DNA of 57,437 nt from Planctomycetales bacterium (GCA_022614695.1 JAKEIC010000077.1:1-57437); one strand, 5' to 3'; positions 3,920-52,391 are shown, numbered from the stretch's first letter. Numbers and translations: made by a program. The notes: generated by a model from the sequence alone, not told the origin.

Positions 3920-3923
3920 GCGG

Positions 3924-5405: not shown

Positions 5406-5435
5406 TTCCGGGCGTCGAGCCCTCCCAGGCAAGTA

Positions 5436-7850
5436 GGCCCCTACGAGGTCCTCGGGAAGCTCGGCCGCGGCGGGTTCGCGGTCGTCTACCGGGCGCGACA
5501 CGTCGAGACGGGACGCGAGGTCGCCCTGAAGGTCCTCGACCGTGAGCGCGGCGCGATCGGGCCCGACGCGCTCCTGCGGTTCCGGCGTGAGATCGAGGCG
5601 GCGCGGGCCCTCGACCACCCGGGGATCGTCCGCGTTGTGGACGCGGAATTCGGTTCACGGTTCACCGCTCACAGTGAACTCGTGAACCGTGAACTGCAAT
5701 CTCCCTGGGTCGCGCTCGAACTCGTCGAGGGCGAGGCGCTCTGGTGCGTCCTCCAGCGCGAGGTCCTCCCGTGGCGCCGCGCGGTCGAGATCGCCCGGGA
5801 CCTCGCCGACGCCCTCGCCCACGCCCACGCGCGGGGGATCCTCCACCGGGACGTGAAGCCTGGCAACATCCTCGTCGGCCGCAAGTGGGGCGACCAGGAT
5901 GTTGCCCATGGGGCCCCTAGGAACGCACGAAGCGCATTCCTCACCGACTTCGGCCTCGCCCGGCTCGCCTCGACCGGCTCGCGGCTCACGCGCACCGGCG
6001 AGGCCCTCGGGACGCCTCACTACATGTCTCCCGAGCAGGCCCGGGGAGAGACACGGACTCTCACGCCGGCTACCGACATCTGGTCCGTCGGCGCGGTGCT
6101 CTACGAGATGCTCGCGGGGCGGCCGCCTTTCGAGGCCGATTCCCCCCCCGAGATCCTCGAGAAGGTCGTCCGCTCGGAGCCGATCGCGATCCGCCGCCTG
6201 CGGCCCGACGCTCCCGAGGGCCTCGACCGCGTCGTGAGGGCCTGTCTCGGGAAGCGGCCGCGGGCCCGGTACCGAGATGCGACGGCGCTCCGGGACGACC
6301 TGGACCGGGTCCGGATCGGCGAGCCCCCGCTCGCCCGCCTCCCGCGCTCGCGACTCGTCGTCATGCCGGCGGCCCTCGTCCTCGCGGCCGGCGCGGTCGT
6401 GGCCGTCCTTTCCCTGCGGCCCCTCCGGCCGCTCACTCGGGCCGATGCGACTCCGCCTCGCGGCTCCCCGGCCGGAACGGAGGCCGAGGCCCTCGCCTCG
6501 CGCGCCCGCGACATCCGATCCTCGGACCCCGGTCGGGCCGAGGAGCTCCTGGCGCGCGCCCTCGAGGCGAAGCCGGAGCGGGACGACTGGCGGGTCGAGA
6601 GGGGGCTGTTGCTCTGGACCCTGGGCAGGAACCTGGAAGCGCGGCTGGCCTGGGAACGCGTGCCCGCGCCGAGCCCCGCGCGGCCCGTGGCGCGGCTCTT
6701 CCTGGGCCTGGAGTCGTTCTTCCGACTCGACCGGGAGGGGACGATCCGGGAACTCGAGCCTCTCGCCGGCTCCGGCACCCGTGAGGCGCGTCTCGCGGGG
6801 GCCGCGATCGCGGCCTTGGCAGGTCGCTGGGAGGACGCCCGGCAAGGCCTCCGCGGGGAGGAGGGGTGGGAGGCCGCTCTGATCCGAGCCTCCGTGGAAA
6901 CCTCGGACCCGGGAGGAGACGACTCGCTCGCCGCGCGGGAGTACGGAAGGGCGCTCGACGAGGGGATCCAGTTCTCGTGGGCGTACAGCAATCTCGGACT
7001 CGCGCGCCAGGCCCAAGGCGACCTGGCGGGCGCCATCCGGGACTACGAAACCGCCCTCCGAATCAACCCGCGGAGCGCCGAGGCCTACGCGAATCTCGGC
7101 GACGCTCGCCGGGCCCAGGGCGACCTGACGGCGGCGATCCGGGACCTCAGCGCGGCCCTCGATCTCAACCCACGCCTCGCGCAGGCCTACGGCAATCGAG
7201 GCCTCGTCCGCCAGAAACAAGGCGACCTCGCCGGGGCCATCCGGGATTTCGAGACCGTGATCGAGCTCGACCCGCGGGACGAGAAGGCGTACACACATCG
7301 CGGGCACGCTCGCCGGCTCCTCGGGGACCTCGCCGGCGCCCTCCGCGACTACGACGCCGCCCTGGAGATCAACCCCGGGCTCGCGGAGGTCTACTTCGAC
7401 CGGGGCGCCCTCCGCGAGCTCCAAGGCGATGGGACCGGGGCGGTCCGGGACTTCGACACCGCGATCGAGAAGGACCCGCGGCACGCTCAGGCGTACTATG
7501 GCCGGGGCATCGTGCGACAGGCCCGAGGCGACGTGGTTGGGGCGATCGGGGACTACGACGCCGCGATCGCGATCACCCCGCGATTCGCGGAAGCCCGGAC
7601 CAACCGCGGGATCCTCCGGAAGTCCCAGGGGGACCTGGCGGGAGCCATGCTCGATTTCGAGGCTGCGCTCGAGGCCAACCCCCGGCTCGGGGAGGCGTAC
7701 TTCAGTCGCGGCATCGCGCGCCGCGAGCTCGGCGACCTCGCCGGCGCGATCGCCGACTTCGAGAGGGCCCTGGAAGTCTCCCCGCCGGGGTGGCGCCACC
7801 GCGGGAGCACGGAGAGCCACCTGGCCGCCGCCCGCGCGGCGGGACGTTGA
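5436..7850 (+). CDS. K1: receptor Ser/Thr kinase - TM - juxtamembrane module - TPR array; start codon unresolved
   Basis: Translation from nt 5436 gives GPYEVLGKLGRGGFAVVYRARH..VALKVL (Gly-loop, VAxK), HRDVKPGNILV, DFGLAR and GTPHYMSPEQ. A TM helix LVVMPAALVLAAGAVVAVLSL follows, then about nine 34-aa TPRs (GDLAGAIRDYETALRINP...). No ATG/GTG/TTG lies between the in-frame TGA at 5403-5405 and the Gly-loop. The first canonical start is GTG 5637 (the ORF-track start), which would remove the ATP-binding strands. Confidence 0.75.
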   Translation, partial: GPYEVLGKLGRGGFAVVYRARHVETGREVALKVLDRERGAIGPDALLRFRREIEAARALDHPGIVRVVDAEFGSRFTAHSELVNRELQSPWVALELVEGEALWCVLQREVLPWRRAVEIARDLADALAHAHARGILHRDVKPGNILVGRKWGDQDVAHGAPRNARSAFLTDFGLARLASTGSRLTRTGEALGTPHYMSPEQARGETRTLTPATDIWSVGAVLYEMLAGRPPFEADSPPEILEKVVRSEPIAIRRLRPDAPEGLDRVVRACLGKRPRARYRDATALRDDLDRVRIGEPPLARLPRSRLVVMPAALVLAAGAVVAVLSLRPLRPLTRADATPPRGSPAGTEAEALASRARDIRSSDPGRAEELLARALEAKPERDDWRVERGLLLWTLGRNLEARLAWERVPAPSPARPVARLFLGLESFFRLDREGTIRELEPLAGSGTREARLAGAAIAALAGRWEDARQGLRGEEGWEAALIRASVETSDPGGDDSLAAREYGRALDEGIQFSWAYSNLGLARQAQGDLAGAIRDYETALRINPRSAEAYANLGDARRAQGDLTAAIRDLSAALDLNPRLAQAYGNRGLVRQKQGDLAGAIRDFETVIELDPRDEKAYTHRGHARRLLGDLAGALRDYDAALEINPGLAEVYFDRGALRELQGDGTGAVRDFDTAIEKDPRHAQAYYGRGIVRQARGDVVGAIGDYDAAIAITPRFAEARTNRGILRKSQGDLAGAMLDFEAALEANPRLGEAYFSRGIARRELGDLAGAIADFERALEVSPPGWRHRGSTESHLAAARAAGR
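5650..5697. repeat. In-frame heptad-phased palindrome inside the K1 N-lobe
   Basis: The arms are GTTCACGGTTCAC (5653-5665) and GTGAACCGTGAAC (5682-5694), an exact 13-bp inverted repeat. The inner part is TCAC-A-GTGA. 7-nt phasing: cggttca|cggttca|ccgctca|cagtgaa|ctcgtga|accgtga. It is translated as EFGSRFTAHSELVNRELQS where K6 has only VGDEGTRL. Confidence 0.85.
5862..5941. repeat. Double-hairpin module between the catalytic loop and DFG of K1 (copy 1 of 3)
   Basis: Hairpin 1 is GGCAACATCCTCGTC (5862-5876), a 15-nt loop, then GACCAGGATGTTGCC (5892-5906), with 14 of 15 positions paired. Hairpin 2 is AGGAACGCAC-GAA-GCGCATTCCT (5919-5941), with two A.C mismatches relative to the perfect K6 copy. 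Confidence 0.9.
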
Positions 7851-16926: not shown

Positions 16927-16972
16927 AGCCCGACGCGGCGAGGGGCGAGAGGCCCGGCGGGGCCGAGACCCA

Positions 16973-21385: not shown

Positions 21386-22710
21386 TGCCGCCCCTGCGCG
21401 TGCCCGTGCTCGTCCTCGTGCTCGTGCTCGGACGACCCGGGACGGAGCCCGCCGCGCTTGCCCAGGACCCCGTCCCGGCCGCCGTCGCCATCGTCGGTGG
21501 CACGGTCCACACGGCCGCCGGCGCCCCGATCCCGAACGGGACCGTCGTGATCCGGGACGGGAAGATCGAGGCCGTGGGTCCGGGGCTCGCGCCGCCCGCC
21601 GGCGCGCGCGTCGTCCGGGCCGACGGCTGCTGGGTGACCCCGGGGTTCACAGACTCGGGGACCTCGCTCGGGCTCGTGGAGATCGAGCTGGTGGAGGCGA
21701 GCCGGGACAGCCACGAGAAGGGGGACCCGATCCAGCCTCAGCTCCGGGCCCTCGACGCATTCCACCCCGCGAGCGTCGTGATCCCGGTCACGCGCGTGAA
21801 CGGGATCACGACGGCGCTCGTGGTCCCGGACCCGAGGAACGTGCTCTCCGGCCAGAGCATGCTCGTGCACCTCGACGGCGCGGAGCCCGCGCAATACCTC
21901 GTGAAGTCTCCCGTCGCGGTCCACGCGAACCTGGGGGAGTCCTCGCGCGGCGAGGGGGACAGCGCCCCGCGCACCCGGATGGGCGAGGTGGCGCTCCTCC
22001 GGAAGGCCCTCGTGGCGGCGAGGGACTACTCCGAGAAGCGCGGCCGCTACGAGCGGAAGTTCGAGGAGTACCGCCGGAAGGTGGCCGCCGGGGAGAAGCC
22101 CGATGGCGACGAGCCCGAGCCGCCCGCGCGGGACCTGAAGAACGACGCGCTCGTGCCGGTGCTCCGCGGCGAGATCCCCCTGGTCGTCCGCGCCCGCCGC
22201 GCCTCCGACCTCCTGCTCGGCCTCGAGATCGGGCGCGAGTTCGGCGTCCGCGTGGTCCTCGACGGCGCGACCGAGGCCTGGAAGGTGGCGGCAAGGATCG
22301 CGGAGGCGAAGGTCCCCGTGATCGTCGGCCCGATCACCGAGCAGCCCGAGGACCTCGAGGCGCTCGGCGCGGTCTACGAGAACGCGGCGAGGCTCCACGC
22401 GGCCGGCGTCACGTTCGCGATCAAGACGGCCGACGCCCACAACGTGCGGAACCTCCCGTACGAGGCGGGGACGGCCGTGACATACGGCCTCCCCTGGGAC
22501 GTCGCCTTCGCGGCCGTGACGCGCCGCCCCGCCGAGATCCTCGGTGCCGACGGCCACGGCACCCTCGAGCCCGGCAAGTGCGCCGACGTCGTCGTCTGGT
22601 CCGGCGACCCGTTCCAGCCGCGGAGCGTCCCGAAGGCGGTCTTCATCCGCGGCCGCGAGATCCCCCTCACGAACAAGCAGACGGAGCTGCGGGACAAGTT
22701 CGGGAAGTAG
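21385..22710 (+). CDS. Second amidohydrolase-family protein, translationally coupled to the first
   Basis: ATG 21385 overlaps the upstream TGA (tgATG), and a G-rich SD-like gagaggggga lies upstream. It has a signal-like MPPLRVPVLVLVLVLG and is paralogous to the preceding gene, but the H-x-H position reads FTDSGT. The track start GTG 21382 is equally possible. Confidence 0.7.
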   Translation: MPPLRVPVLVLVLVLGRPGTEPAALAQDPVPAAVAIVGGTVHTAAGAPIPNGTVVIRDGKIEAVGPGLAPPAGARVVRADGCWVTPGFTDSGTSLGLVEIELVEASRDSHEKGDPIQPQLRALDAFHPASVVIPVTRVNGITTALVVPDPRNVLSGQSMLVHLDGAEPAQYLVKSPVAVHANLGESSRGEGDSAPRTRMGEVALLRKALVAARDYSEKRGRYERKFEEYRRKVAAGEKPDGDEPEPPARDLKNDALVPVLRGEIPLVVRARRASDLLLGLEIGREFGVRVVLDGATEAWKVAARIAEAKVPVIVGPITEQPEDLEALGAVYENAARLHAAGVTFAIKTADAHNVRNLPYEAGTAVTYGLPWDVAFAAVTRRPAEILGADGHGTLEPGKCADVVVWSGDPFQPRSVPKAVFIRGREIPLTNKQTELRDKFGK

Positions 22711-22755
22711 GCCTCGCGGAGCGCACGCCCGGGCCGTCGGGGTACGATCGCCCTC

Positions 22756-24672
22756 GTGGACCCCGGGCAGCGGACCGTGGGCTGCTTCCTCGCCGATTTC
22801 GGCCTCGCCCGGTACGTCGCGACCGGCTCGAAGTACACGCGGACGGGCCAGGCGCTCGGGACTCCCGAGTACATGTCCCCCGAGCAGGCGGTCGGCGACC
22901 CGGACGCGCTCTCGCCGGCCACCGACGTGTGGGGGCTCGGGGCCGCTCTCCACGAGATGCTCGCCGGAAGTCCGCCGTTCGAGGGAGACACGCCCACCTT
23001 GATCGCGAAGATCCTCCTCGAGTCGCCGCCGCGCATCCGTCGCCTCCGGCCCGACGCGCCCCGCGCCGTGGACCGGATCCTGCGGGTCTGCCTCGGGAAG
23101 GACCCCGCGCGCCGGTACGCGAACGGCCGGTCGCTCGCCGAGGACCTCGAGCGAGTCCTGCGCGGCGAGTCCCCTCTCGCGCGCCCTCCCTCGACAAGCA
23201 CGCTCATGACGGTCGCGGCCGTCGCCGCGGTCGCTGCCGTGGCCGCGCTCCTGCTCGTCGGCCGGTCGCCCACGGGGTCGGGGGGATCGGGGGCCGAGGA
23301 CCTGCCCGATCCGGGGGTTGCGCGGGCCGCGCTGTCCGGGGCGGCGTCGCCCGAGGGCCTGGCGGTCCGGGCGCGGGCGCTCCGGGCCTCCGACCCGCAG
23401 GCGGCCGTCCACCTGCTCGGGGAGGCGCTGGCGAGGGAACCCCTGCGGCACGCGTGGCGGCTCGAGCGCGGACTCCTCCTCTGGTGCCTCGGCGACGGGG
23501 AGGCGGCGCGGGAGGAGTGGCGCCGCGTCCCTCCCGACACCCCCGAAGGAACCGAAGCAAGGCTCTACGGCGGGCTCGTGGGCGTGATCAGCGGACACGA
23601 GGTGCGGATCCGGTCCGACCCGGAGACCGTGGACCGGGCGATCCGCGACCTCGAGGCCGTGGCCTCCGGTACGGGTCCCGAGGCCGCCCTCGCGCGGGGA
23701 GCCCTCGCGACGGCGCGACGGGATTGGGGGGAGGCGCGCCAGGCCCTTCGGGACGCCCCCGGATGGCTGGCGGCGATGCTCCGGGCGTTCGTCGAGGGAA
23801 CGGACCCCGCGGGCGACGATCGCCTGGCGGCCCGGGAGTACGGGGTCGCGCTCGCGGAGGGCGTCCCGTTCGGCTGGGCGTACGTGAACCGGGCGTGCTG
23901 CCTCGAGACGACGGGAGACTACGCCGCCATGCGAGCCGAGGCCGAAGCGGCCGTCCGCCTGCTGCCGGACGTCCCCGAGGCGCACAACGTCCTCGGCCAT
24001 TGCATGCTCCGCCTCGGCGATCTCCGCGGGGCGATGGAGGCGCTCGACGAGGCGCTGCGGCTCCGGCCGGGATTCGCCAACGCCCTCTTCGCCCGCGCCG
24101 GGGTGTGGATCGCCCGGGGGGACACCGCCCAGGCGCTCGCGGACATGGATGAGGCGGTCGTTGCCGACCCCGCCGATCCCGCCGCCTGGTGTCGCCGGGG
24201 GTTCCTGCGGTCGCGCCTCGGGGACCCCGCCGGCGCCGAGGCGGACCAGGACGAGGCGTTGCGGCTCCGTCCGGCCTTCCCCGAGGCGTTGGTGAACCGC
24301 GGAGCCCTGCGCAGCGCGCGCGCGGACCACGGCGGCGCGCTCGCCGACCTCGACGAGTCGCTGCGGATCGAGCCCGACCACCCCGAGGCGCTCCTCAACC
24401 GTGGGATCGCGCGACGCGCGGCCGGGCAGGTCGAGGGCTCTCTCGACGACTTCGCCCGACTCGCCGGCCTGCGCCCGGTGGACCCCGAGGCCCACCTCGG
24501 CCTGGCGCTCGGACGCGAGCTCCGGGAAGAGTGGCGCGGGGCGGCCACGGCCTACGCCGAGGTGCTGCGCCTCGCGCCCGGACACCCGCAGGCCGAGCGG
24601 GTGAGGCGCTCCCTCGCCGAGTGCGAGGAGCGCGCGCGGACGGCGGCGGGGAGCGAGGGGCGCGGCCGTTGA
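22756..24672 (+). CDS. K2: N-lobe-less paralogue (kinase subdomains VII-XI only) - TM - juxtamembrane module - TPR array
   Basis: It starts VDPGQRTVGCFLADFGLARYVATGSKYTRTGQALGTPEYMSPEQA. No Gly-loop, VAxK Lys or HRD loop exists upstream; the gene is preceded by only 45 nt and then the amidohydrolase stop. It has a TM helix LMTVAAVAAVAAVAALLLVG, the conserved WRLERGLLLW...GWLAAMLRAFVEGTDPAGD...PFGWAY module, and TPRs up to the stop. Confidence 0.75.
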   Translation: MDPGQRTVGCFLADFGLARYVATGSKYTRTGQALGTPEYMSPEQAVGDPDALSPATDVWGLGAALHEMLAGSPPFEGDTPTLIAKILLESPPRIRRLRPDAPRAVDRILRVCLGKDPARRYANGRSLAEDLERVLRGESPLARPPSTSTLMTVAAVAAVAAVAALLLVGRSPTGSGGSGAEDLPDPGVARAALSGAASPEGLAVRARALRASDPQAAVHLLGEALAREPLRHAWRLERGLLLWCLGDGEAAREEWRRVPPDTPEGTEARLYGGLVGVISGHEVRIRSDPETVDRAIRDLEAVASGTGPEAALARGALATARRDWGEARQALRDAPGWLAAMLRAFVEGTDPAGDDRLAAREYGVALAEGVPFGWAYVNRACCLETTGDYAAMRAEAEAAVRLLPDVPEAHNVLGHCMLRLGDLRGAMEALDEALRLRPGFANALFARAGVWIARGDTAQALADMDEAVVADPADPAAWCRRGFLRSRLGDPAGAEADQDEALRLRPAFPEALVNRGALRSARADHGGALADLDESLRIEPDHPEALLNRGIARRAAGQVEGSLDDFARLAGLRPVDPEAHLGLALGRELREEWRGAATAYAEVLRLAPGHPQAERVRRSLAECEERARTAAGSEGRGR

Positions 24673-26654
24673 CCCCGCCCCCGAGCCGGGACGGCCCCTC
24701 CGGGGACCCGGGGCGCGGGGCGCCTCGCGCGTTCCTCGCCGACTTCGGCCTGGCGAAGTCCGTCTCCACCGGATCGAAGCTCACCCGCACCGGCCAGGCT
24801 CTCGGGACCCCGGAGTACATGTCGCCCGAGCAGGCCCGCGGCGAGATGGCGGAATTGACGCCGGCCGCGGACACCTGGGCCGTCGGGGCCCTGCTCTACG
24901 AGGCCGTCACGGGGCGGGTCCCCTTCGAGGGCCCGACGCCGGCCCAGGTGGTCCTGAAGGTCCTCCGCCACGAGCCGCCCCCGCTGCGCCGGCTCGCGCC
25001 GGGGGTCCCCGAGGCCCTCGAGGCGGTCGTCCGGGGTTGCCTCGGGAAGCGCGCCACCGACCGCTACCGGGACGGAGCGACCCTGCGCGACGACCTGGAC
25101 CGGCTCCTCGGTGGGGCGCGGCCGCTCTCGCGCGCCCGGAGACGGCAGAGGCCCGTGCTCCTCGCGGCGTGCGGGGCCGGTGCGGTCGCCCTCGTCGCGG
25201 CGCTCGTGCCGTCCGGGACCCCGACCGAGCCCGAACCGGTCGTCGGGCCCGCGCCGGCCGCCGCCCTGGCGGCGCGCGCCCGCGCCGTGGAGACCGGGGA
25301 CCCCGCGGCGGCGGCGAGGCTCCTCGACGAAGCCCTCGCCGCCGAACCCGGCCACCCGTCCCGCCACGAGTGGCGGCTCCGGCGGGGGCTCCTCCTCTGG
25401 GCCCTCGGGCGGGGGGCGGAGGCCCGCGAGGCGTGGGACCGGGTCCCCGACGACGCGGGCGAGGCCCCGCGGGCCCGGCTCTACTCGGCGCTCGAGCCGA
25501 TGTTCCGCCTGGCAGGGGAGGAGGCAGGGCCGGCGCTCGAGCGGGTCGCCCGCGGGACGGGCCCGGAAGCGGGCCTCGCGCGGGGGGCGCTCGCGACGGT
25601 CCGCCGGGACTGGGGCGCGGCCCGGGCCGCCCTGGGCGGTTTGCCCGGCTGGGAGGCGGCGCTCCTTCGCGCGTCGGTGGAGTGCCTCGACGCGGCGGGC
25701 GGAGATCCGGCGCTCGCGGTCCGCGATTCGGACGCGGCGCTCGCGACGGGCATCCGGTTCGGATGGGCGTTGAGCAACCGGAGCGCCGCCCGCCGGGAGC
25801 TGGGAGACTTCCGCGGCGCCCTGCTCGACGCGGAGGAGGCACTGCGGCTCTCCCCCGGGTTCCTCCTGGCGCTCCTCGGCCGCGCCGAGGCCCGACTTGC
25901 GCTGGGCGACGGGCGGGGGGCGCTCGCCGACTGCGAGGAGGTCCTGCGGCGCGACCCCGGCTACGCCAAGGGGCTCACCGGGCGAGCGGACACCCATCGG
26001 GCCCTGGGCGACCACGCCCGCGCGATTGCCGACTACGACGCGGCGCTGCGGCTCCAGCCCGGCGATCCGGTCGCGCTCACGAACCGGGGGGTCAGCCGCG
26101 AGCGGCTCGGGGACCTCGAAGGCGCGATCGCCGACCACGAGGCGGCGCTCCGCGCCCGGCCGAGCATGTTCGAGGCGCTCCTGAACCGGGGCAACGCCCG
26201 GTTCCTCCTCCGCGACGGCGAGCGCGCCCTCGAGGACTTCGGCGCCGCGATCCGGGCCCGGCCGCGCCGCGTCGAGCCGTACTTCAACCGCGGGAACGTC
26301 CGCACGTTCCTCGGAGACCACGCCGGGGCCGCGGAGGACTACACGGCCGCGATCGAGAGGGACCCGGGGATGGTCGCCGCCTACCTCTCCCGCGGCAACG
26401 CCCGCGTCCGGCTCGGCGACCACCGGGGGGCGTCGGAGGACTTCGCCGCGACGATCCGCCTCGACCCCTCGGACGCGGCCGTCCACGGGAACCTCGGATC
26501 GAGCCTCTACGAGCTGGGGGACCTCGCCGGCGCCGCGGCCCACTACGAGGAGTTCCTCCGGCGCTTGCCCGATCACCGCTCCGCCCGCCACCTCCGTGGG
26601 AGGCTCGAGGAGATCCGCCGGAGGCTGGCGGGCGGGGAGCCGGGCGGCCGTTAG
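24669..26654 (+). CDS. K3: N-lobe-less paralogue - TM - juxtamembrane module - TPR array
   Basis: TTG 24669 overlaps the K2 stop TGA 24670-24672. It begins LTPPPSRDGPSGDPGRGAPRAFLADFGLAKSVSTGSKLTRTGQALGTPEYMSPEQARGE. The TM helix is PVLLAACGAGAVALVAALV, followed by about seven TPRs. The track ORF start at 24189 is an out-of-frame overlap with K2. Confidence 0.7.
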   Translation: MTPPPSRDGPSGDPGRGAPRAFLADFGLAKSVSTGSKLTRTGQALGTPEYMSPEQARGEMAELTPAADTWAVGALLYEAVTGRVPFEGPTPAQVVLKVLRHEPPPLRRLAPGVPEALEAVVRGCLGKRATDRYRDGATLRDDLDRLLGGARPLSRARRRQRPVLLAACGAGAVALVAALVPSGTPTEPEPVVGPAPAAALAARARAVETGDPAAAARLLDEALAAEPGHPSRHEWRLRRGLLLWALGRGAEAREAWDRVPDDAGEAPRARLYSALEPMFRLAGEEAGPALERVARGTGPEAGLARGALATVRRDWGAARAALGGLPGWEAALLRASVECLDAAGGDPALAVRDSDAALATGIRFGWALSNRSAARRELGDFRGALLDAEEALRLSPGFLLALLGRAEARLALGDGRGALADCEEVLRRDPGYAKGLTGRADTHRALGDHARAIADYDAALRLQPGDPVALTNRGVSRERLGDLEGAIADHEAALRARPSMFEALLNRGNARFLLRDGERALEDFGAAIRARPRRVEPYFNRGNVRTFLGDHAGAAEDYTAAIERDPGMVAAYLSRGNARVRLGDHRGASEDFAATIRLDPSDAAVHGNLGSSLYELGDLAGAAAHYEEFLRRLPDHRSARHLRGRLEEIRRRLAGGEPGGR

Positions 26655-26665
26655 GATTCCCTCCC

Positions 26666-28996
26666 GTGGAGGGAGACCCCGCGACCCGGATCGGTCCCTA
26701 CGAGATCGGGGAGGAGCTCGGCCGGGGCGGGTTCGGCTCGGTCTACCGGGCGCGGGACGCCTCGACCGGCCGGGAGGTCGCGCTCAAGGTCTTGCGCGAG
26801 GATCCGGGGGACGGCGCACTCCCGGCCCGCCGGTTCCTGCGCGAGACGTCGCTCGTGCGCGAGCTCGATCACCCGGCGATCCTGAAGGTCCTCGACGCGT
26901 CCCGGGAGGACGAGAAGCCCCTCTGGGTGGCGTTCGAGCTCGTGGAGGGCGTTCCCCTCTGGAAGCTCCTGGCCGAGGAGCCCCTCGAGTGGCGCCGGGC
27001 GGCCGAGATCGCCCGCGACGTCGCCGCCGCCCTCGGACACGCCCACGCCAAGGGGATCCTGCACAGGGACGTGAAGCCGGGCAACATCCTCGTCGGCCGC
27101 AAGTGGGGTGACGAGGATGTTGCGGACGGGGCCCCCGGGAACGCGCGAAGCGCGTTCCTCACCGACTTCGGCCTCGCCCGCGTCACTGACACGCGGTCGC
27201 GCCTCACGGTGACGGGGATGGCGATCGGGACGCCGGAGTACATGTCGCCCGAGCAGGCGCGCGGAGAGACGACGTCTCTCAGCCCGGCGACCGACGTCTG
27301 GGCGGTCGGCGTGGTCCTCTACGAGATGCTCGCGGGGCGACTGCCGTTCGAGGGGGACTCCCCCGAGTCGGTGATCGAGAAGGTCGTCCTGCGGGAGCCG
27401 GTGGGCCTCCGGAAGCTCCGGTCCGGCGTGCCGGCGGGGCTCGACCGCGTCGTGCGCGCCTGTCTCGCGAAGCGGCGGGAGTCGCGCTACCCGGACGGGA
27501 CGGCTCTCCAGGAGGACTTGGACCGGGTGCTCCGGGGTGAGAACGCACGCGCCTCGCCGCCCCACCGATGGCGAGGCCCCGCGATCGCGGCGGGGATGGC
27601 GGCGCTCCTCGCCGGCGCGGTCGCCCTGCGTCCCGGCTCCCCGCGCTCGGCGTCGGCGCCCGCCGAGGCCCGGTCCGCCCCGTCCGCCGCGGAGGCCCTG
27701 GCGGGGAGGGCGGCCCGGCTCAGGGGCTCCGACCCCGTCGAAGCCGCCCGGCTCCTCCAGCAGGCGTTGGCGGAGGATCTCGGTCACCCCGACGCCGACC
27801 GCTGGCGGCTGGAACGCGGCCTCCTCCTCTGGTCGGTCGGGTACGGGGACGAGGCGCAAGGGGAGTGGCTGCGGATCGCCCCCGGCTCGCCGCTCGCGCC
27901 GCCCGCGCGGCTCTACCGCGGTCTCGAGGCGATCCTGCGGATCCGCTCGAGCGCGGAGCGGCGCCAGGCGGGGACCGCCGAGCTGGAGGCCGCGGCTTCC
28001 GGCGAGGGCCGCGAGGGGAGACTCGCGCGCGGGACGCTGGCCGCGTTCGGCCACCGTTGGGACGAGGCGCGGCGTGCCCTGCGCGACGAGACCGGATGGG
28101 AGGCCGCCCTGCTCCGAGGCTACGTCGAGGGACTCGATCCGGCCGGCGACCGCGCGGCCGTCGTTCGGGAGCTCGGGGAGGCCCTCGCGGCCGGGCTCCC
28201 CTTCTCGTGGGCCCACAACAACCGGGGCGCCGCGCTCCTCGAGCTCGGGGACGCGCCGGGCGCGCTCGCGGAATTCGACGCGGCCCTCCGGCTCCGGCCC
28301 GACGATCCCGGGGCGCTCCTCAACCGGGGCATCGCGCGCCTCGGGGCCGGAGATCCGCGCGGGGCCCGCGACGACCTGACGACTCTGCTGCGGGACTCGC
28401 CGGGCGACTCCGCCGCCTCCCACCAGCGAGGCATCGCCCGGATGAGGCTCGGCGACACGGTCGGGGCCCTCGCGGACTTCACCGCGTCGCTCGAGGGCCG
28501 GCCGCGGGACCCGGACACGCGGTACAACCGGGGGAACGCCCACGTGGCCCTGGGGGACCTGGCGGCGGCCGAGAGGGACTACACGATCGCGATCGAGGCG
28601 CGACCTGACTTCCACGGGGCGCTCACGAACCGCGGGAACGTCCGCTGGAACCAGGGGAACGAGTCGGGAGCCCTCGAGGACTACGACGCCGCGCTCCGGA
28701 TCGCGCCGGGTGAGTCACGGGCGCTCAACAACCGGGGGAGGCTGCACCTCCGGCACGGCCGTCTCGAGGCCGCCGACGCGGACTTGCGAGCCGCTCGCAA
28801 GTCGGACCCGTCGTTCCCCGATCCGCTCTACAACCTCGGGATCGTCCACCAGAAGCGGCGAGAGTGGGAGGAGGCCATCCAGCTCTTCTCGGAGTTCCTT
28901 CGCATGGCTCCGACCCATGCCGCCGCCGAGGAGGCCCGCCTCCGGCGGACCGGCTGCGAGCAGGGCGCGCAGGAGGAATCCGGGCGCCCGCGCTGA
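26666..28996 (+). CDS. K4: full-length receptor Ser/Thr kinase - TM - juxtamembrane module - TPR array
   Basis: GTG 26666 lies 11 nt after the K3 stop. The sequence reads VEGDPATRIGPYEIGEELGRGGFGSVYRARD, VALKVL, HRDVKPGNILVGRKWGDEDVADGAPGNARSAFLTDFGLAR, GTPEYMSPEQ. The TM helix is GPAIAAGMAALLAGAVAL, followed by TPRs. The track ORF start at 25037 overlaps K3 out of frame. Confidence 0.85.
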   Translation: MEGDPATRIGPYEIGEELGRGGFGSVYRARDASTGREVALKVLREDPGDGALPARRFLRETSLVRELDHPAILKVLDASREDEKPLWVAFELVEGVPLWKLLAEEPLEWRRAAEIARDVAAALGHAHAKGILHRDVKPGNILVGRKWGDEDVADGAPGNARSAFLTDFGLARVTDTRSRLTVTGMAIGTPEYMSPEQARGETTSLSPATDVWAVGVVLYEMLAGRLPFEGDSPESVIEKVVLREPVGLRKLRSGVPAGLDRVVRACLAKRRESRYPDGTALQEDLDRVLRGENARASPPHRWRGPAIAAGMAALLAGAVALRPGSPRSASAPAEARSAPSAAEALAGRAARLRGSDPVEAARLLQQALAEDLGHPDADRWRLERGLLLWSVGYGDEAQGEWLRIAPGSPLAPPARLYRGLEAILRIRSSAERRQAGTAELEAAASGEGREGRLARGTLAAFGHRWDEARRALRDETGWEAALLRGYVEGLDPAGDRAAVVRELGEALAAGLPFSWAHNNRGAALLELGDAPGALAEFDAALRLRPDDPGALLNRGIARLGAGDPRGARDDLTTLLRDSPGDSAASHQRGIARMRLGDTVGALADFTASLEGRPRDPDTRYNRGNAHVALGDLAAAERDYTIAIEARPDFHGALTNRGNVRWNQGNESGALEDYDAALRIAPGESRALNNRGRLHLRHGRLEAADADLRAARKSDPSFPDPLYNLGIVHQKRREWEEAIQLFSEFLRMAPTHAAAEEARLRRTGCEQGAQEESGRPR
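27080..27159. repeat. Double-hairpin module in K4 (copy 2 of 3)
   Basis: Hairpin 1 is GCAACATCCTCGTC (27081-27094) paired with GACGAGGATGTTGC (27110-27123), a 14-bp stem. Hairpin 2 is GGAACGCGC-GAA-GCGCGTTCC (27138-27158). I count 6 differences from the 80-nt K6 copy. Confidence 0.9.
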
Positions 28997-29006
28997 GGGG
29001 TATCTC

Positions 29007-30863
29007 GTGAACTGCTCCCTCACCGACTTCGGCCTCGCGAAGTTCGCGGCGACCGGCTCCCGGCTCACGCGCACCGGCCAGGCGCTCGGGACCCCCGCCT
29101 ACATGTCGCCCGAGCAGGCGCGCGGCGAGCTCCTCGCCCTCTCGCCCGCGACGGACGTCTGGTCGCTCGGGTGCGTCCTCTACGAGATGCTCGCGGGCCG
29201 CCCCCCCTTTGAGGGAGGGACGCCGGCCGAGACCGTCGGGAAGGTCCTCTTCTCGGAACCCCCGGCGCTCCGGCGACTCCGCCCGGACGTCCCCGCGAGC
29301 CTGGAGCGGATCGTGCGGGTGGCGCTCGCGAAGGGCGTCCGGGCGCGGTATCCCGATGCCGCGGCGTTCCGCGACGACCTCGATCGCGTGACGCGAGGCG
29401 AGAGCCCGCGAGCGCGGCCGCCCGGCCCGCGACGCCTTGGGACCACACTCGCGCTGGGGGCCGCCGCCGCCGCCGGGGCTATCGGCCTCTCGTGGCACTT
29501 CCGCCCGCCGGAGGCGCCTCCGCCGCCCGCCGCCCCGCCGGCGAGGTCCCGGGCGGAGGCGCTCGCGGACCGTGCCCGCGGGCTCCGGACCTCCGACCCT
29601 CGGGAGGCGGCCCGCCTTCTCGGGGAAGCGCTCCGGGAGGACCCCGGCCGCGCGGGGTGGCGGCTCGAGCGGGGGCTCCTCCTCTGGGCGCTCGGCGAGA
29701 GCCGCGTGGCTCGCGAGGAGTGGGGCCGGGTGTGCGAAGTCCCCGGCGGCTGCCCGGAGTCCGAGAGGGCCCATCTCTACCGCGCGCTCGAGGTGGTCTT
29801 CGACATGGACCTCGGGGCGCGGAGGATCGAGGAGGCGCTGCCCGACATCGAGGCGGTCCTCGCCGCCGACGGATCGTGCGCGGGGCTCGCGAGGGGGGCC
29901 ATCGCGGCCGTCTGGGGGCACGGGCCGGAGGCGCTCGAGGAGCTCCGGGAGCAGCGAGGCTGGGAGGCGGCGCTGCTGCGGGGCTACGTCGAGGGGGACG
30001 CCGAACGTCATCCCGGAGGCGACCCGGCCCGCGCGGTGCGGGAGTTCACCGAGGCGCTCGCGGCCGGCCTTCCCTTCGCGTGGGCCTACCTCGACCGAGG
30101 CGTCTCGCGCCACCGGCTGGGCGACTTCCCGGGCGCGATCCGGGACTGCGACGCGGCCCTGCGGGTGCGCCCGGCGTGGCACGTGGCCCTGGCCAACCGG
30201 GGCGCGGCGCGCCTCTCCCTCGGGGACACCCCGCGGGCCCTCGAGGACGTGGAGGCCGCGCTGCGACTCCGGCCGGACTACCCGGATGGCCTCCTCGGCC
30301 GCGCGAGCGTCCGCGCGGCGCTGGGGGACCTCCCCGGCGCGCTGGAGGACGCGGAGGCCTCCCTGCGTCTCCAGCCCCAGTCCGCCCTGGGCCTGACGCA
30401 CCGGGGCGAGCTCCGCGGGCGGCTCGGCGACGCGCGGGGCGCCCGCGAGGACCTGGACTCCGCCCTCCGGCTCCGCCCCGAGATGCCCGAGGCGCTCGCC
30501 TTCCGGGGCAAGCTGCGGGGGGAGCTCGGCGACTTCTCCGGGGCCCTCGACGATCTCGACGCCGCGATCCGGCTCCGGCCCGGGGTGCCGAACTTCCACG
30601 TGGTCCGGGCGGCCGCGCGCGAGTCGCTGGGCCGGCTGGAGGAGGCGGTGCTCGACTGCGACGCGGCCGTCCGGCTCAAGCCCGACTACGTCGAGGCGCT
30701 CGCGCAGCGCGCGCGGGCGCGGATCAGCCTCGGAAACCCGGAGGGGGCCCTCGCCGACTGCGGGGAGGCCCTGCGGCTCCGTCCGGGATACGCGCCGGCC
30801 CTTGAGTTCGAGGCGAGGGCCCGGGCCGAGCTGGCGGAACGGGGCCCCCGAGGCGGGCGGTAG
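29007..30863 (+). CDS. K5: N-lobe-less paralogue - TM - juxtamembrane module - TPR array
   Basis: GTG 29007 lies 10 nt after the K4 stop. It begins VNCSLTDFGLAKFAATGSRLTRTGQALGTPAYMSPEQARGE. The TM helix is LGTTLALGAAAAAGAIGLSW, followed by about six TPRs. Confidence 0.7.
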   Translation: MNCSLTDFGLAKFAATGSRLTRTGQALGTPAYMSPEQARGELLALSPATDVWSLGCVLYEMLAGRPPFEGGTPAETVGKVLFSEPPALRRLRPDVPASLERIVRVALAKGVRARYPDAAAFRDDLDRVTRGESPRARPPGPRRLGTTLALGAAAAAGAIGLSWHFRPPEAPPPPAAPPARSRAEALADRARGLRTSDPREAARLLGEALREDPGRAGWRLERGLLLWALGESRVAREEWGRVCEVPGGCPESERAHLYRALEVVFDMDLGARRIEEALPDIEAVLAADGSCAGLARGAIAAVWGHGPEALEELREQRGWEAALLRGYVEGDAERHPGGDPARAVREFTEALAAGLPFAWAYLDRGVSRHRLGDFPGAIRDCDAALRVRPAWHVALANRGAARLSLGDTPRALEDVEAALRLRPDYPDGLLGRASVRAALGDLPGALEDAEASLRLQPQSALGLTHRGELRGRLGDARGAREDLDSALRLRPEMPEALAFRGKLRGELGDFSGALDDLDAAIRLRPGVPNFHVVRAAARESLGRLEEAVLDCDAAVRLKPDYVEALAQRARARISLGNPEGALADCGEALRLRPGYAPALEFEARARAELAERGPRGGR

Positions 30864-41173: not shown

Positions 41174-42397
41174 ATGCGCCCGTTCGGCGCGCTGATGCCG
41201 GTCGCCGAGGCGGCGGCGCGGCTCCTCACGGCGGTCCGCCCGGTGGAGGAGGCCGAGGAGGTCCCGATCGCGGACGCGGCCGGCCGGGTGGCCGCCGCGG
41301 AGCTCCTCGCCGAGGATCCGGTGCCGCGCTTCGCGCGAGCCGTGATGGACGGCTACGCGGTGCGCGCGGCCGGAGGTCTCCCCGCGGACTGGCCCTGGCG
41401 ACTCGTCCTCGCCGGGGCGGTGCACGCCGGCGAGACGCCGCCGCCGGTCCGAGCGGGCGAGTGCGTCCAGATCGCGACCGGGGCCCCGCTCCCGCCGGGG
41501 GCCGACACGGTGGTCCCCGTCGAGGAGACCCACCGCGACGGAGGCACGGTGCTCGTCCTCCGGGCGATCCCGGCCGGCGCCAACGTGTCGCCGGCCGGGG
41601 CCGACTTCCAGGAGGGGGACCTGGTCGTCGGCCAGGGCGATGCGCTCACGCCCGCGCGGGTCGGGGCCGCCGCGGCGGCAGGGGCCGCGGCGCTCCGCGT
41701 CTACCGCCGGCCGCGGGTCGCGATCTGGGGGAGCGGGGACGAGGTGAGGCCGCCGGGCGCGTCGCTCGGCCCCGGCCAGGTCCACGACGCCAACGGACCC
41801 GCGCTCGCGGCGCTCGTCCGCGCGCACGGGGGGACGCCGCTCGCGGGCGGGACCCTCCCCGACCGCGAGGACGCCGTCGAGGCCGCGCTCGGGGGCGGAT
41901 CGGGGGCCGACCTGACCGTCGTGACCGGCGGCACGTCCGTCGGGGAGCGGGACCTCGTCGGCCGGGTCCTCGGGCGGCTCGCCGAGGTGCTGTTCCACGG
42001 CCTCGCGGTCAAGCCGGGGCGGCCGACCCTCGGGGCCCGGGTCCGAGGCCAGCTCGTCCTGGGCCTCCCCGGGAACCCGACCTCATGCCTCCAGATGGCC
42101 TACGTCTTCCTCGTGCCCGCGCTGCGACGGATGGCGCGGCTCCCCGACTGGGCGCCCACGCGCGTCCGGGCGGTCCTCTCCGACTCGGTCAAGTCGCCCC
42201 CCGACAAGCACCACTACTTCTCCGTGCGGCTCGCGGCCGAGTCGGGCGCGCAGCCCCGGCTCCCCCGCGCCGTGCCGGCCTGGAAGGAGTCGGGCACGAT
42301 CTCGAGCCTCTCGCTCGCCGACGGCTGGATCGAGATCCCGGTCGGGGTCGCGACCCTGGCGGCCGGCGCCGAGGTGGAGGTGGTCCTGTTCGGATGA
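41174..42397 (+). CDS. moeA: Molybdopterin molybdenumtransferase
   Basis: It has MRPFGALMPVAEAAARLL, AVMDGYAVRA, IATGAPLPPGADTVVPVE, TGGTSVGERD, LAVKPGRPT and LPGNPTS. The track start at 39530 is a spurious upstream extension. Confidence 0.85.
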   Translation: MRPFGALMPVAEAAARLLTAVRPVEEAEEVPIADAAGRVAAAELLAEDPVPRFARAVMDGYAVRAAGGLPADWPWRLVLAGAVHAGETPPPVRAGECVQIATGAPLPPGADTVVPVEETHRDGGTVLVLRAIPAGANVSPAGADFQEGDLVVGQGDALTPARVGAAAAAGAAALRVYRRPRVAIWGSGDEVRPPGASLGPGQVHDANGPALAALVRAHGGTPLAGGTLPDREDAVEAALGGGSGADLTVVTGGTSVGERDLVGRVLGRLAEVLFHGLAVKPGRPTLGARVRGQLVLGLPGNPTSCLQMAYVFLVPALRRMARLPDWAPTRVRAVLSDSVKSPPDKHHYFSVRLAAESGAQPRLPRAVPAWKESGTISSLSLADGWIEIPVGVATLAAGAEVEVVLFG

Positions 42398-44601
42398 GCG
42401 GTCCTCCGCGCCATCTCGGGCCCTGGGAGATCCTGGAGGAGATCGGCCGCGGGGGGTACGGGGCCGTCTACCGGGCTCGCCACTCGCGCACGGGAGCGCC
42501 GGCCGCCGTGAAGCTCGTCCTCGCGGGCGACGGGGCGACTCCGGAGGAGATCCGGCGGTTCCAGCGCGAGATCGCGCTGGCGCGCACCCTCGACCACCCG
42601 GGGATCGTGAAGGTGCTCGACGTGGGGGACGAGGGCACGCGCCTCTGGTACGCGATGGAGCTTGTCGAGGGCCGGCCGCTCTACAGGCTCCTCGCCGAGG
42701 AGACCCTCCCCTGGCGCCGCGCCGTCGAGATCGCCCGCGACGTCGCCGACGCCCTCGCCCACGCCCACGCGCGGGGGGTGCTTCACCGGGACGTGAAGCC
42801 TGGCAACATCCTCGTCGGCCGCAAGTGGGGCGACGAGGATGTTGCCAATGGGGCCCCTAGGAACGCGCGAAGCGCGTTCCTAGCCGACTTCGGCCTTGCC
42901 CGGCTCTCGTCGAGCGCGTCGCGCCTCACGCGGACCGGCATGGCGCTCGGGACGCCGGAGTACATGTCCCCCGAGCAGGCGCAGGGCGAGCGGGAGAAGC
43001 TCGGGCCCCCGACCGACGTGTGGGGCGTGGGCTGCGTCCTCTACGAGATGCTCGCGGGGAGGCTCCCGTTCGAGGGCACCTCGGCCGAGCACACGATCGA
43101 GGCCGTCGTGCTCCGCGAGCCGGTCCCGCTCCGCCGGGTCCGCCCCGACGCCCCGCCCGCGCTCGAGCGGGTCGTGCGCGTCTGCCTCGCCAAGCGCCCC
43201 TCGCGCCGCTACCGCGACGCGGGCGCGCTCCGCGACGACCTGGACCGCGTGCTCCGGGGCGAGCGTCCGCAGGCGCGGCCCCCGGCACGGTGGGGGTGGA
43301 GAGTCGCGGCCGCGGCCTTCGTGGCGGCAGTCGCGTGCTGGGCTGGCTGGCTCGCCCGGGAGTCGGGCGAGCCCGAGCTGGTTGCCGAAGGGCACGGGCC
43401 GCCTGGGGCCCCGTCGAGAGCGGAGTCGCTCGCGGGCCGGGCGCGAGCTCTCCGGGCCACGGATCCTCGGGAGGCGGCGCGGCTTCTCGGAGAGGCCCTC
43501 GCGCTCGAGAGAGACCAGCACGAGTGTAGGATCGAGAGAGGGCTCTTGCTCTGGGCTGCCGGAGATGGTCCCGGGGGCCGGGCCGAGTGGCAAGGCGTCC
43601 CGGCCACTGCCGCCGCGTGGTCGCGAGCGAACTTCTACATGGCGATCCAGGCCCTGGGCCATCCGGAGGGGTTCGATTTCGACGCCCAGCTCGAAGCGAT
43701 CCAGGACGGGTCGGGCCGAGAGTCCACGATCGCCCGGGCCATCCTCGAGCTCCTGCATCGAGAGTGGGCTTCTGCGCGTGCATTGCTGCGGGGACTTCCC
43801 GGCTGGGAGGCCGCGATGGCGCGAGGATACCTCGAGACCATGGATCCGACGGGAGATCCGGCGGCCGCCGTGCGAGAGTACGGCGTAGTCCTCGCGGAAG
43901 GCCTCCACATCCCGTGGGTCCATCAGATGCGCGCCGTGTGCCGCAACCGAACCGGAGACCCCCGGGGCGCGATCGAGGACGCGGACGAGACCCTGCGCGT
44001 CCAGCCAGCGTCCCCAGAGGCCCTTGAAGTCCGGGCAAATGCGAGAGGGAGACTCGGGGACCACGTCGGCGCTCTCGAGGACGCCGAGGCTGCGCTGAAG
44101 CTGCGCCCGCGGTTCCCGGGGGCGCTCCTCACCCGCGGGACCGTGAGAGGCCTGTCGGGCGACCTGGCTGGCGCACTCCGGGACTTTGACGCGGCTCTCG
44201 ATCTGGATCCGGGCTTTGAGCACGCCCTGTTCAATCGGGCCTATGCCCGGGAGCAGAGCGGCGACCTGCAGGGTAGCCTGAGGGACTACGACGCCCTCAT
44301 CCGGGTGCGGCCTGACCACGTGGATGCCAGGCACAACCGGGGCTCACTCCGGGCCCGACTGGGAGACGACGCGGGGGCGGAGGAGGATCTCGAAGTCGCC
44401 CACCGTGCGCGACCTGACGACCCGTTGCCTTTGGGGATGCTGGGGCGTGTCCGGCGGGCCCGGCGGGACTGGGCCGGTGCCGCGGATGCCTTCCGTGGTT
44501 TCCTCCGGCTCGCGGCGAGCGATTCGCAGCGAGCCCAGGTGACCGCATGGCTGGCAGAGTGCGAGGAGAAGCTCCGCGAGGAGCGCGCGAAGGGTCGGTA
44601 G
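42394..44601 (+). CDS. K6: full-length receptor Ser/Thr kinase - TM - juxtamembrane module - TPR array
   Basis: ATG 42394 overlaps the moeA stop (ATGA). The sequence reads MSGPPRHLGPWEILEEIGRGGYGAVYRARH, AVKLVL, HRDVKPGNILVGRKWGDEDVANGAPRNARSAFLADFGLAR, GTPEYMSPEQ. The TM helix is WRVAAAAFVAAVACWAGWLA, followed by TPRs. Confidence 0.85.
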   Translation: MSGPPRHLGPWEILEEIGRGGYGAVYRARHSRTGAPAAVKLVLAGDGATPEEIRRFQREIALARTLDHPGIVKVLDVGDEGTRLWYAMELVEGRPLYRLLAEETLPWRRAVEIARDVADALAHAHARGVLHRDVKPGNILVGRKWGDEDVANGAPRNARSAFLADFGLARLSSSASRLTRTGMALGTPEYMSPEQAQGEREKLGPPTDVWGVGCVLYEMLAGRLPFEGTSAEHTIEAVVLREPVPLRRVRPDAPPALERVVRVCLAKRPSRRYRDAGALRDDLDRVLRGERPQARPPARWGWRVAAAAFVAAVACWAGWLARESGEPELVAEGHGPPGAPSRAESLAGRARALRATDPREAARLLGEALALERDQHECRIERGLLLWAAGDGPGGRAEWQGVPATAAAWSRANFYMAIQALGHPEGFDFDAQLEAIQDGSGRESTIARAILELLHREWASARALLRGLPGWEAAMARGYLETMDPTGDPAAAVREYGVVLAEGLHIPWVHQMRAVCRNRTGDPRGAIEDADETLRVQPASPEALEVRANARGRLGDHVGALEDAEAALKLRPRFPGALLTRGTVRGLSGDLAGALRDFDAALDLDPGFEHALFNRAYAREQSGDLQGSLRDYDALIRVRPDHVDARHNRGSLRARLGDDAGAEEDLEVAHRARPDDPLPLGMLGRVRRARRDWAGAADAFRGFLRLAASDSQRAQVTAWLAECEEKLREERAKGR
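42802..42881. repeat. Double-hairpin module in K6 (copy 3 of 3, both stems perfect)
   Basis: Hairpin 1 is GGCAACATCCTCGTC (42802-42816), the loop GGCCGCAAGTGGGGC, then GACGAGGATGTTGCC (42832-42846), giving 15/15 bp. Hairpin 2 is AGGAACGCGC-GAA-GCGCGTTCCT (42859-42881), giving 10/10 bp with the core GCGAAGC. Confidence 0.95.
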
Positions 44602-48770: not shown

Positions 48771-48800
48771 TTGACTTGTGCATTCGCCGTCTGCTACGGT
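48771..48800 (+). promoter_or_regulatory. Candidate promoter giving a leaderless K9 transcript
   Basis: TTGACT (48771-48776), an 18-nt spacer, then TACGGT (48795-48800). ATG 48805 lies 4 nt downstream of the -10. Motif match only. Confidence 0.3.
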
Positions 48801-48804
48801 GCCC

Positions 48805-52343: not shown

Positions 52344-52391
52344 CCCGAGGATCGGGCAGGTTACCGGAGCCTGGGGAAGGGGTCAACGCGC

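Follow-up and report, generated by a model that had tools for sequence, protein, structure and literature searches.

Kinase paralogues without an N-terminal lobe and in-frame hairpins coincide at the beta7-beta8 loop in a Planctomycetales locus

Why should three truncated kinase genes begin at the very place where their full-length paralogues carry a DNA hairpin? The question is raised by a 57,437-nucleotide (nt) stretch of DNA from a Planctomycetales bacterium (GCA_022614695.1 JAKEIC010000077.1:1-57437), analysed here over its whole length and hereafter called the window. It is chromosomal DNA of ~75% G+C, its closest protein relatives come from assemblies labelled 'MAG: Planctomycetales bacterium' (MAG, metagenome-assembled genome), and it encodes seven paralogues, K1 to K7, in which a Hanks-type kinase is followed by a transmembrane (TM) helix and tetratricopeptide (TPR) repeats. 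K1, K4, K6 and K7 are full-length, and K2, K3 and K5 lack the N-terminal lobe (N-lobe) of the kinase. An earlier note on this DNA had pointed out that the 5' ends of the three truncated genes coincide with a hairpin module of the full-length ones, and had proposed that the fold-back structure was the point of breakage. The coincidence is robust when it is read at the level of a protein loop, the one between strands beta7 and beta8 that runs from the catalytic loop to the DFG motif, and the nucleotide remnants and the excision proposed along with it appear to fail. Judging from sequence comparison, we consider it somewhat more probable than its converse that K2, K3 and K5 represent an old, selected class of half-kinases whose ends reflect a shared, indel-tolerant loop and selection, and not hairpin-driven breakage.

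K2, K3 and K5 are intact open reading frames (ORFs) whose match to Pkinase (PF00069) begins only at profile position 138/139, just before DFG, which bears out, as a coincidence of protein loops, the observation that they begin where the full-length paralogues carry the module (coordinates in Table 1). The glycine-rich loop and the beta3 lysine of PF00069, which serve ATP binding, are not present in the three proteins, and the HRDxKxxN catalytic loop is missing as well, HRD being found by a motif scan only in K1, K4, K6, K7, K8 and a minus-strand kinase. What follows is retained: DFG (as DFGLA), the activation segment, the APE/SPE motif (within TPxYMSPEQ) and helices alphaF to alphaI. Residues 5-136 of K5 (database entry P0022) align to PknB 157-287 (E=8e-26), and an AlphaFold2 (AF2) model of this protein is confident over residues 51-140 (predicted local distance difference test 83-94) and, with the TPR domain included, reaches 83-99, the activation segment (residues 1-50) being unstructured by itself. 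Over the shared part, the identity of the three proteins among themselves and with K1, K4, K6 and K7 is 44-52%, which speaks against three recent breaks as their origin; no parent can be named for K3, since it is ~46-50% identical to K1, K4 and K6, and the closest relatives of K5 are not its paralogues in the window but truncated genes from other MAGs (P0088, 61%; P0009, 57%). A tblastn search with the K6 N-lobe found no N-lobe remnant close to K2, K3 or K5, and the DNA upstream of them consists of intact 3' ends of other genes; the idea that they are split or frameshifted pseudogenes was therefore rejected. On these comparisons, K2, K3 and K5 are evidently old, intact genes under selection.

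The three genes have many counterparts. A protein search with K3 gave more than 100 clusters (defined at 90% identity), nearly all of them N-lobe-less, and a search with K6 gave only about 10 full-length members, the ratio of half-kinases to full-length relatives in Planctomycetales MAGs being about 10:1. In every one of the 112 truncated clusters the start lies within the beta7-beta8 loop, 4-55 codons ahead of DFG, so that the positional coincidence first noticed in three genes extends to the family, with no member among the 112 breaking at an unrelated position. The leaders of these clusters fall into several classes: 34 are minimal (MSAFL, MDCFL, VNCSL in K5) and without room for a hairpin, 9 keep the native N-terminus MRxGPYE joined to the loop, 10 read VEPRAFL, and others carry parts of an insert (hairpin 2 of type A in 2, the whole type C insert in 4, type D in 8; the types are described below). 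The K2 leader, VDPGQRTVGCFLA, is similar to the MDPGPGT / MDRGPRTVTCFL starts of P0063 and P0073, and an in-frame GTG at 24621 is a possible alternative start for K3. A consensus over 113 truncated proteins gives P-R-A-F-L before DFG, and the residues from DFG to SPEQ are near-invariant across 40 truncated proteins. Junction classes and pairwise identities were used in place of a neighbour-joining (NJ) tree of the family, which was star-like with long tips. A search of genome contigs with patterns back-translated from an alignment of the C-terminal lobe (C-lobe), which proved to be generic kinase motifs, listed 80 loci, all of them unrelated kinases (at most 51% identity). The half-kinase family, membrane TPR proteins with a beta8/DFG segment and alphaF-alphaI, seems to be undescribed. 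Interrupted members also occur, a truncated one being broken by an in-frame TAG at L087 (3978-5945) and another split into two ORFs at L084 (2335-3980), so at least some copies are decaying.

In K1, K4 and K6 the distance from HRD to DFG is 34 codons against the usual 20, and the 14 extra codons, which lie in the beta7-beta8 loop, make up the two hairpins of what we call the type A module. The left arm of hairpin 1 (in K6, 42801-42820/42828-42847, 95% complementary) consists of the conserved GNILVG codons and its right arm (GDEDVA) is an inverted copy of them (20 nt, 95%); the right arm of hairpin 2 (42857-42868/42872-42883, 100% complementary) consists of the AFLA codons before DFG and its left arm (PRNAR) is again an inverted copy, the reverse complement of GCGCGTTCCTAG (12 nt, 100%). 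Relative to shuffles, the RNA folds score z values of -7.7 in K6, -4.3 in K4 and -2.5 in K1. Full-length relatives without the insert have 20-codon loops (P0080, P0092, P0095, P0109, P0125) or a 27-codon loop (P0089). Nucleotide identity among K1, K4 and K6 peaks at 85-100%, third positions included, from ~100 nt upstream through the module, which points to gene conversion as the process that spread the module among them. The N-lobes of K6 and K7 (42415-42830 and 44677-45087) are 82% identical in amino acids and 93% in nucleotides over the first 60 nt, against ~50% for the C-terminal parts, and to judge from such identities the kinase family of the window is a gene-conversion mosaic.

Considering that the truncated genes were thought to retain pieces of the module, we compared their leaders with it, using in-frame coding segments from the same window as the null. 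The earlier note held that K3 carries a degenerate copy. In the register it gave, K3 and K6 are identical at 26 of 60 positions (null 19.5 +/- 3.4, P=0.04), an excess confined to the last 12 nt (9/12); the 48 nt of K3 that lie opposite hairpin 1 match at 17 positions (null 15.7, P=0.38), with no remnant of hairpin 1, and the 77 nt of K3 are no better folded than shuffles (z=-0.11). The match around GAPR and its 12 nt thus stands and the trace of hairpin 1 does not. Unanchored local alignments of the K2, K3 and K5 leaders to the module stay at background level (P=0.10-0.93). The short echoes of the module reported upstream of K2 ('GTIALV', 11/15 with one gap, P=0.10, in the 45 untranslated nt before the GTG start) and of K5 (7/15, P about 1.0) are matters of chance. 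At the peptide level, GDPGRGAP of K3 fits the right half of the type A insert with a 4-residue gap (P=0.001) and that of the type D insert (xDPGPGTP) as well (P=0.0004), and VDPGQRTV of K2 fits type D alone (P=0.0002 vs 0.18 for type A). The paralogues, at ~50% amino-acid identity, are too diverged for breakpoints to be read at the nucleotide level.

K3 had further been taken to lack one arm and the loop of hairpin 2 through precise excision. The 12-nt difference itself is real, K3 reading GGG GCG CCT CGC GCG TTC CT where K6 reads GGG GCC CCT AGG AAC GCG CGA AGC GCG TTC CT, and its polarity favours a gain in K6. K6 has 13 nt (AGGAACGCGCGAA) in exchange for 1, and within them the 10 nt that follow (GCGCGTTCCT) recur as a perfect inverted copy; the 12-nt segment is without flanking direct repeats in K3 and K6, and the PRAFL state (CCN CGC GCS TTC CT) is found in K3, in full-length genes with the type C insert, in P0089 and in most truncated genes. 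Because of the inverted copy, the absence of flanking direct repeats and the wide occurrence of PRAFL, excision in K3 appears the less parsimonious polarity, and the difference is better read as a templated insertion in K6. Template switching yields insertions of this form (PMC8794818, PMC5453318), which palindrome excision does not usually leave.

Two truncated proteins bear directly on the need for a hairpin. P0133 (MQAGPSHPESEPGRGGSTTVY/GGGRPHVVDFG, the slash marking the junction) and P0018 (MRTGPYETHAE/LDREGRPHLADFG) are 76% and 71% identical, respectively, to the full-length and insert-less P0095 (NLLLDREGGLHVVDFG); their junctions are different and non-nested, both lie in the beta7-beta8 loop, and neither has a hairpin. 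Since the full-length proteins begin MRIGPYE..ELGRGGF and this native N-terminus is kept, P0133 and P0018 are in-frame internal deletions; as they come from hairpin-free kinases and lost the N-lobe at this very loop, that loss does not require a hairpin. Where hairpins are present, the truncation endpoints vary relative to them (left edge, middle, inside the right arm, right edge). The truncated genes that keep a whole hairpin (three at L084, one at L085) begin 1-5 codons before its left arm, with ATG AGC GGC GAC GAA GTC GTT T in the three L084 genes against AAG GTC GTT T in full-length genes and with ATG AAG GTC at L085, and in P0038 (L086) an N-terminal remnant is joined between hairpins 1 and 2. 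The proposal that the fold-back is the break point thus keeps a positional coincidence that is general, but the same junction arises in hairpin-free lineages.

Taken together, the alignments indicate that the hairpin is probably not the cause of the loss of the N-lobe. The 5' ends of K2, K3 and K5 would coincide with the module because both are confined to the beta7-beta8 loop. This loop would tolerate indels and so gather palindromic inserts; the type A arms, which repeat the neighbouring GNILVG and AFLA codons in inverted orientation, would bear the signature of template-switch (quasi-palindrome) replication errors, which we infer to be the origin of the inserts. The same loop would be the sole endpoint at which the ATP-binding and catalytic residues are removed and the strictly conserved FLxDFG...SPEQ segment is kept, so that selection may well account for the common boundary. 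Loss of the N-lobe would have recurred several times, through internal deletions that kept the frame or through truncation from the 5' side, both where the lineage had a hairpin and where it had none, and the leaders may have been shortened secondarily when new start codons appeared, in many cases coupled as ATGA/TTGA within tandem arrays.

Several observations weigh against this account. Selection for the boundary is assumed, and what is seen is that 112 of 112 truncated clusters end in the loop and 0 upstream of the catalytic loop; as the loop is the only seam at which the catalytic machinery is dropped and FLxDFG kept, sequence cannot separate selection from mechanism. Truncated starts in type C (L084) and type D (L085) genes lie within ~10 nt of the left arm, and that at L086 lies between hairpins 1 and 2, which is what a hairpin-guided endpoint would also give. 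Hairpin DNA is conserved at least as well as the adjacent C-lobe codons (79-94% vs 68-81%), which is unexpected for a neutral by-product. The star-like NJ tree, finally, gives no count of independent truncations, for which the junction types set only a bound.

The alternative closest to the earlier note is that fold-back DNA, as a hairpin or cruciform, stalls replication or is cleaved and so repeatedly yields N-lobe-less copies ending at the hairpin. The starts just before the left arm at L084 and L085, the joint between the two hairpins of P0038 and the total lack of truncated clusters broken outside the loop (0/112) are all as this would have it, as are the long hairpin that occupies the 5' region of K2 from the upstream stop codon (z=-2.65) and the identity peak of K1, K4 and K6 around the module, with its suggestion of gene-conversion tracts. 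Yet the insert-less lineages of P0133 and P0018 show the same junction, the endpoints wander over the hairpin, K3 and K5 hold no hairpin remnant, the K2 and K5 echoes are chance, the supposed 12-nt excision lacks direct repeats at its flanks and makes better sense as a type A insertion, and at ~50% amino-acid identity breakpoints are unreadable at the nucleotide level. We regard hairpin-driven breakage as unlikely and rank it below selection acting on a shared loop, the reading that we hold to be the likelier.

A second alternative is best weighed with the other hairpins of the family in view. Longer ones occupy the same site in K7, P0068, P0123-like genes and several truncated leaders, and we divide them into types B, C and D, whose arms are made of 4-5 tandem heptamers (GTCCAGA, GTCGTTT, GGTCCCT) with complementary heptamers in the opposite arm. 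The three types are alike in position, left flank (AAG GTC) and architecture, and their heptamers differ; their G+C content is 52-68% in a 73-75% genome, and in 8/8 cases the antisense strand gives the more stable fold (G.U pairs over all cases, 30 vs 10). Among type A modules, hairpin 1 is 98.5% paired across K1, K4, K6, P0121 (L081) and P0122 (L082), with a double change from A-U to G-C in P0121 (ATC>GTC matched by GAT>GAC). Hairpin 2 shows paired changes from C-G to U-A in P0121 and P0038 and from G-C to A-U in P0038, where they cost two amino-acid changes (PRNTRSVFL vs PRNARSAFL), and it is decayed in K1 and P0122. The observed covariation is reached by 35/500 and 14/500 shuffles, with few independent sequences. 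Hairpin DNA is 79-94% identical among paralogues against 68-81% for C-lobe codons (third positions 55-70%), and in full-length type C pairs the hairpin is conserved no better than the catalytic-loop codons.

Perfect hairpins (stem of at least 11, loop of 3-20) are also in excess in the window at large, with 10 against 2.15 +/- 1.35 in codon-shuffled sequence, a 4-5x excess. One is a second in-frame hairpin in the N-lobe of K1, a 13-amino-acid insert that is not in K4, K6 or K7 and whose sequence is unrelated to the beta7-beta8 inserts. Outside the kinase family, perfect hairpins lie at 9700-9727, 13549-13597 and 21774-21813, the last within an amidohydrolase gene. The excess suggests that the genome as a whole may tend to produce templated palindromes. 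A search of the whole window on both strands against Rfam 15 gave 0 matches at the gathering score.

In this second alternative the hairpins are functional elements, either RNA structures at the start of truncated genes (acting on translation, coupling or mRNA stability) or DNA marks of a module boundary, and full-length genes with large inserts would have arisen as mosaics, by duplication or gene conversion that placed an N-terminal half in front of a half-gene opening with a hairpin; such a joint would account for the exact fit of hairpin and junction. It draws on the compensatory changes that keep both type A stems, some at the price of altered amino acids, on the shared site, flank and architecture of types B, C and D with different heptamers matched by their complements, on the excess of hairpin identity over that of C-lobe third positions, on the start codons of K2, L084 and L085 within the stem or at its base, and on the mosaic relation of K6 and K7. 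Against it stand the small number of independent sequences behind the covariation, the decay of hairpin 2 in K1 and P0122, the 34 of 112 truncated genes without room for a hairpin, the unexceptional conservation in full-length type C pairs, the better antisense folding of types B-D, which is a poor fit to a simple mRNA element, and the lack of an Rfam match and of a recombinase in the window. Moreover, template switching makes stems and paired 'compensatory' changes without selection (PMC8794818), so that a function of the hairpins is possible but unproven. We think this alternative doubtful and place it after breakage. More doubtful again is its extended form, in which the hairpins are selected structures at the seam between catalytic and sensor parts that mark or drive the repeated loss, gain or exchange of the catalytic N-terminal half, in a family of about 10 catalytic kinases and more than 100 half-kinases whose invariant but unstructured DFG-to-SPEQ segment the full-length members would complete or phosphorylate in trans. 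Hairpins that were under selection or promoted recombination would represent a novel class of structural DNA or RNA signal by which protein modules are delimited.

It is very improbable that the inserts are a mobile in-frame palindromic element, of the Rickettsia palindromic element or miniature inverted-repeat transposable element (MITE) kind, that targets the loop site. They are indeed palindromic, in frame, of lower G+C (52-62%) and in a surface loop, and K1 has a second hairpin insert in another loop; but the type A arms are copies of codons that flank them in the gene itself, and for that reason the idea was dropped for type A, types B-D leaving it unsupported. The K1 N-lobe hairpin is unrelated in sequence, heptamer hairpins occur only at this family's loop site in ~136 kb from three MAGs, and no dispersed copies in unrelated genes or intergenic DNA were seen in the window and L081-L087. 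A scan of metagenome contigs with a 15-mer from the type C loop gave at least 120 loci, and all the matches listed were chance (best extension score 26 of about 120).

Recombinase-driven cassette switching (shufflon, pilS-like or attC-like) was rejected, with no recombinase domain among the window genes scanned and no shared recombination site or hairpin upstream of K3 and K5. In a related locus, L082 (3275-7870), the type A kinase P0122 has three tandem tyrosine-recombinase (Phage_integrase) genes directly upstream, reminiscent of a recombinase-in-trio element, that probably have nothing to do with the hairpins.

Table 1. Coordinates of the kinase paralogues and hairpins (positions in the window unless a locus is named)
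Feature	Position	Strand	Details
K1, full-length	about 5433-7850		
K1 N-lobe, second in-frame hairpin	5653..5694	+	13-bp perfect stem, GGTTCAC x2 / GTGAACC
K1 type A module	5862..5941	+	hairpin 1 89%; hairpin 2 degenerate, two uncompensated GCG>GCA changes
Imperfect long hairpin at K2 5' end	22702..22790	+	from upstream amidohydrolase stop to K2 'CFL' codons, GTG near apex; fold z=-2.65, 4/200 shuffles as good
K2, N-lobe-less, GTG start	22756..24672	+	Pfam match, C-terminal part
K3, N-lobe-less: kinase remnant, TM helix, TPR repeats	24669..26654	+	Pkinase profile 139-251 and TPRs
K3 leader, 24 codons from TTG to DFG	24669..24740	+	ends GAPRAFLA
K4, full-length kinase-TM-TPR, GTG start	26666..28996	+	
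K4 type A module	27081..27158	+	hairpin 1 27081-27094/27110-27123 (14 bp perfect); hairpin 2 27138-27146/27150-27158
K5, N-lobe-less, 6-codon leader (VNCSLT)	29007..30863	+	Pfam, PknB alignment, AF2 model
K6, full-length kinase-TM-TPR	42394..44601	+	database entry P0064, 735 amino acids
K6 type A module	42801..42883	+	-52.5 kcal/mol, z=-7.7
K7, full-length	44614-46938		
K7 type B insert, same loop	45101..45178	+	imperfect hairpin, 29-nt arms; left arm 4.3 copies of heptamer GTCCAGA
Type B-D loop hairpins outside K7	L083 8400-8510; L081 3240-3350, 5600-5710		
Type B-D loop hairpins outside K7, continued	L084 2350-2440, 3990-4085, 5715-5810; L085 8005-8100		

K2, K3, K4 and K5 form a tight array on one strand, downstream of two amidohydrolase genes; the TTG start of K3 at 24669 shares bases with the K2 stop (cgTTGA), and 11 nt separate the K3 stop from the K4 start and 10 nt the K4 stop from the K5 start. 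The surroundings are rich in signalling genes, with two adenylate/guanylate cyclase genes (15625-16998 and 51201-52382, both on the minus strand) and two more kinases unrelated to the K family (16973-19942, minus; about 48775-50016, plus). A giant FG-GAP repeat protein is encoded at 2-3919, and the region of about 8.2-15.6 kb has a very large gene of tandem 86-amino-acid domains, its 258-nt unit recurring 8.5 times at 12042-14224 with 66% matches; the antisense frame of these repeats holds a ladder of ORFs with lengths in multiples of ~86 codons. The 5' end of K1 (5403-5460) is anomalous in that no ATG, GTG or TTG occurs between an in-frame TGA (5403-5405) and the well-conserved G-loop codons. 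A 499-amino-acid ORF without a Pfam hit (3906-5405) lies upstream in the same frame, with the TGA alone between them, and the database gene call for K1 (P0124) places the start within the N-lobe; read-through, a lost start codon and a sequence error are all possible.

Among known systems, the inserts may be compared with template-switch mutations as described by the Ripley quasi-palindrome model. Such mutations create and maintain hairpin stems (Monttinen & Loytynoja 2022, PMC8794818; Loytynoja & Goldman 2017, PMC5453318). As in those cases, the type A insert is a near-perfect inverted copy of adjacent DNA, so that one event gives a ready stem, and paired 'compensatory' differences between homologues are seen in hairpins 1 and 2. 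Unlike them, the stems here lie in frame in a kinase loop, both flanks are copied, which takes two events side by side, and the modules seem to have been passed among paralogues; the presumed switch itself is read from sequence comparison. As far as these alignments go, what is new is that the hairpin arms are inverted copies of flanking codons with compensatory changes and that heptamer-built hairpins stand at the same site in the family. If the more ordinary reading is true, the locus would be a clean natural case of template-switch errors writing hairpins into a coding loop, in a family that repeatedly sheds its catalytic half at one permissive seam.

Classical palindrome-stimulated deletion or hairpin slippage in E. 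coli, the mechanism invoked by the earlier note, gives deletions with endpoints at the hairpin base, and what is lost in them is normally the palindrome lying between short direct repeats. The present case differs from it in that several truncated genes retain the whole hairpin, the K3/K6 difference has no direct repeats, and hairpin-free lineages show the same N-lobe loss. Rickettsia palindromic elements and other in-frame, MITE-like inserts are mentioned in PMC1779305 and PMC10969869. The Rickettsia elements are dispersed across many unrelated genes. They share with our inserts that palindromic DNA is translated in frame into surface-exposed parts of proteins; ours, in contrast, were seen only at one loop of one family and, in type A, are made from the host gene's codons.

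With PknB (1mru/3f69) and other Hanks-type kinases the family shares the succession of kinase, TM helix and extracytoplasmic repeats. A 2025 review of bacterial pseudokinases makes no mention of truncated, TPR-linked, C-lobe-only or planctomycete families, and the known bacterial pseudokinases retain the bilobal fold (PMC12599244); the half-kinases, in contrast, are without everything before beta8, that is, the G-loop, the lysine, alphaC, the hinge, alphaD/E and HRD. The biology around the breakpoint claim, namely a large family of half-kinases whose seam carries templated in-frame hairpins, is more interesting than the claim itself. The near-invariant activation segment suggests that the half-kinases may act in trans with real kinases, as substrate, decoy or scaffold, and such a role, if true, would widen the concept of the pseudokinase to half-domains.

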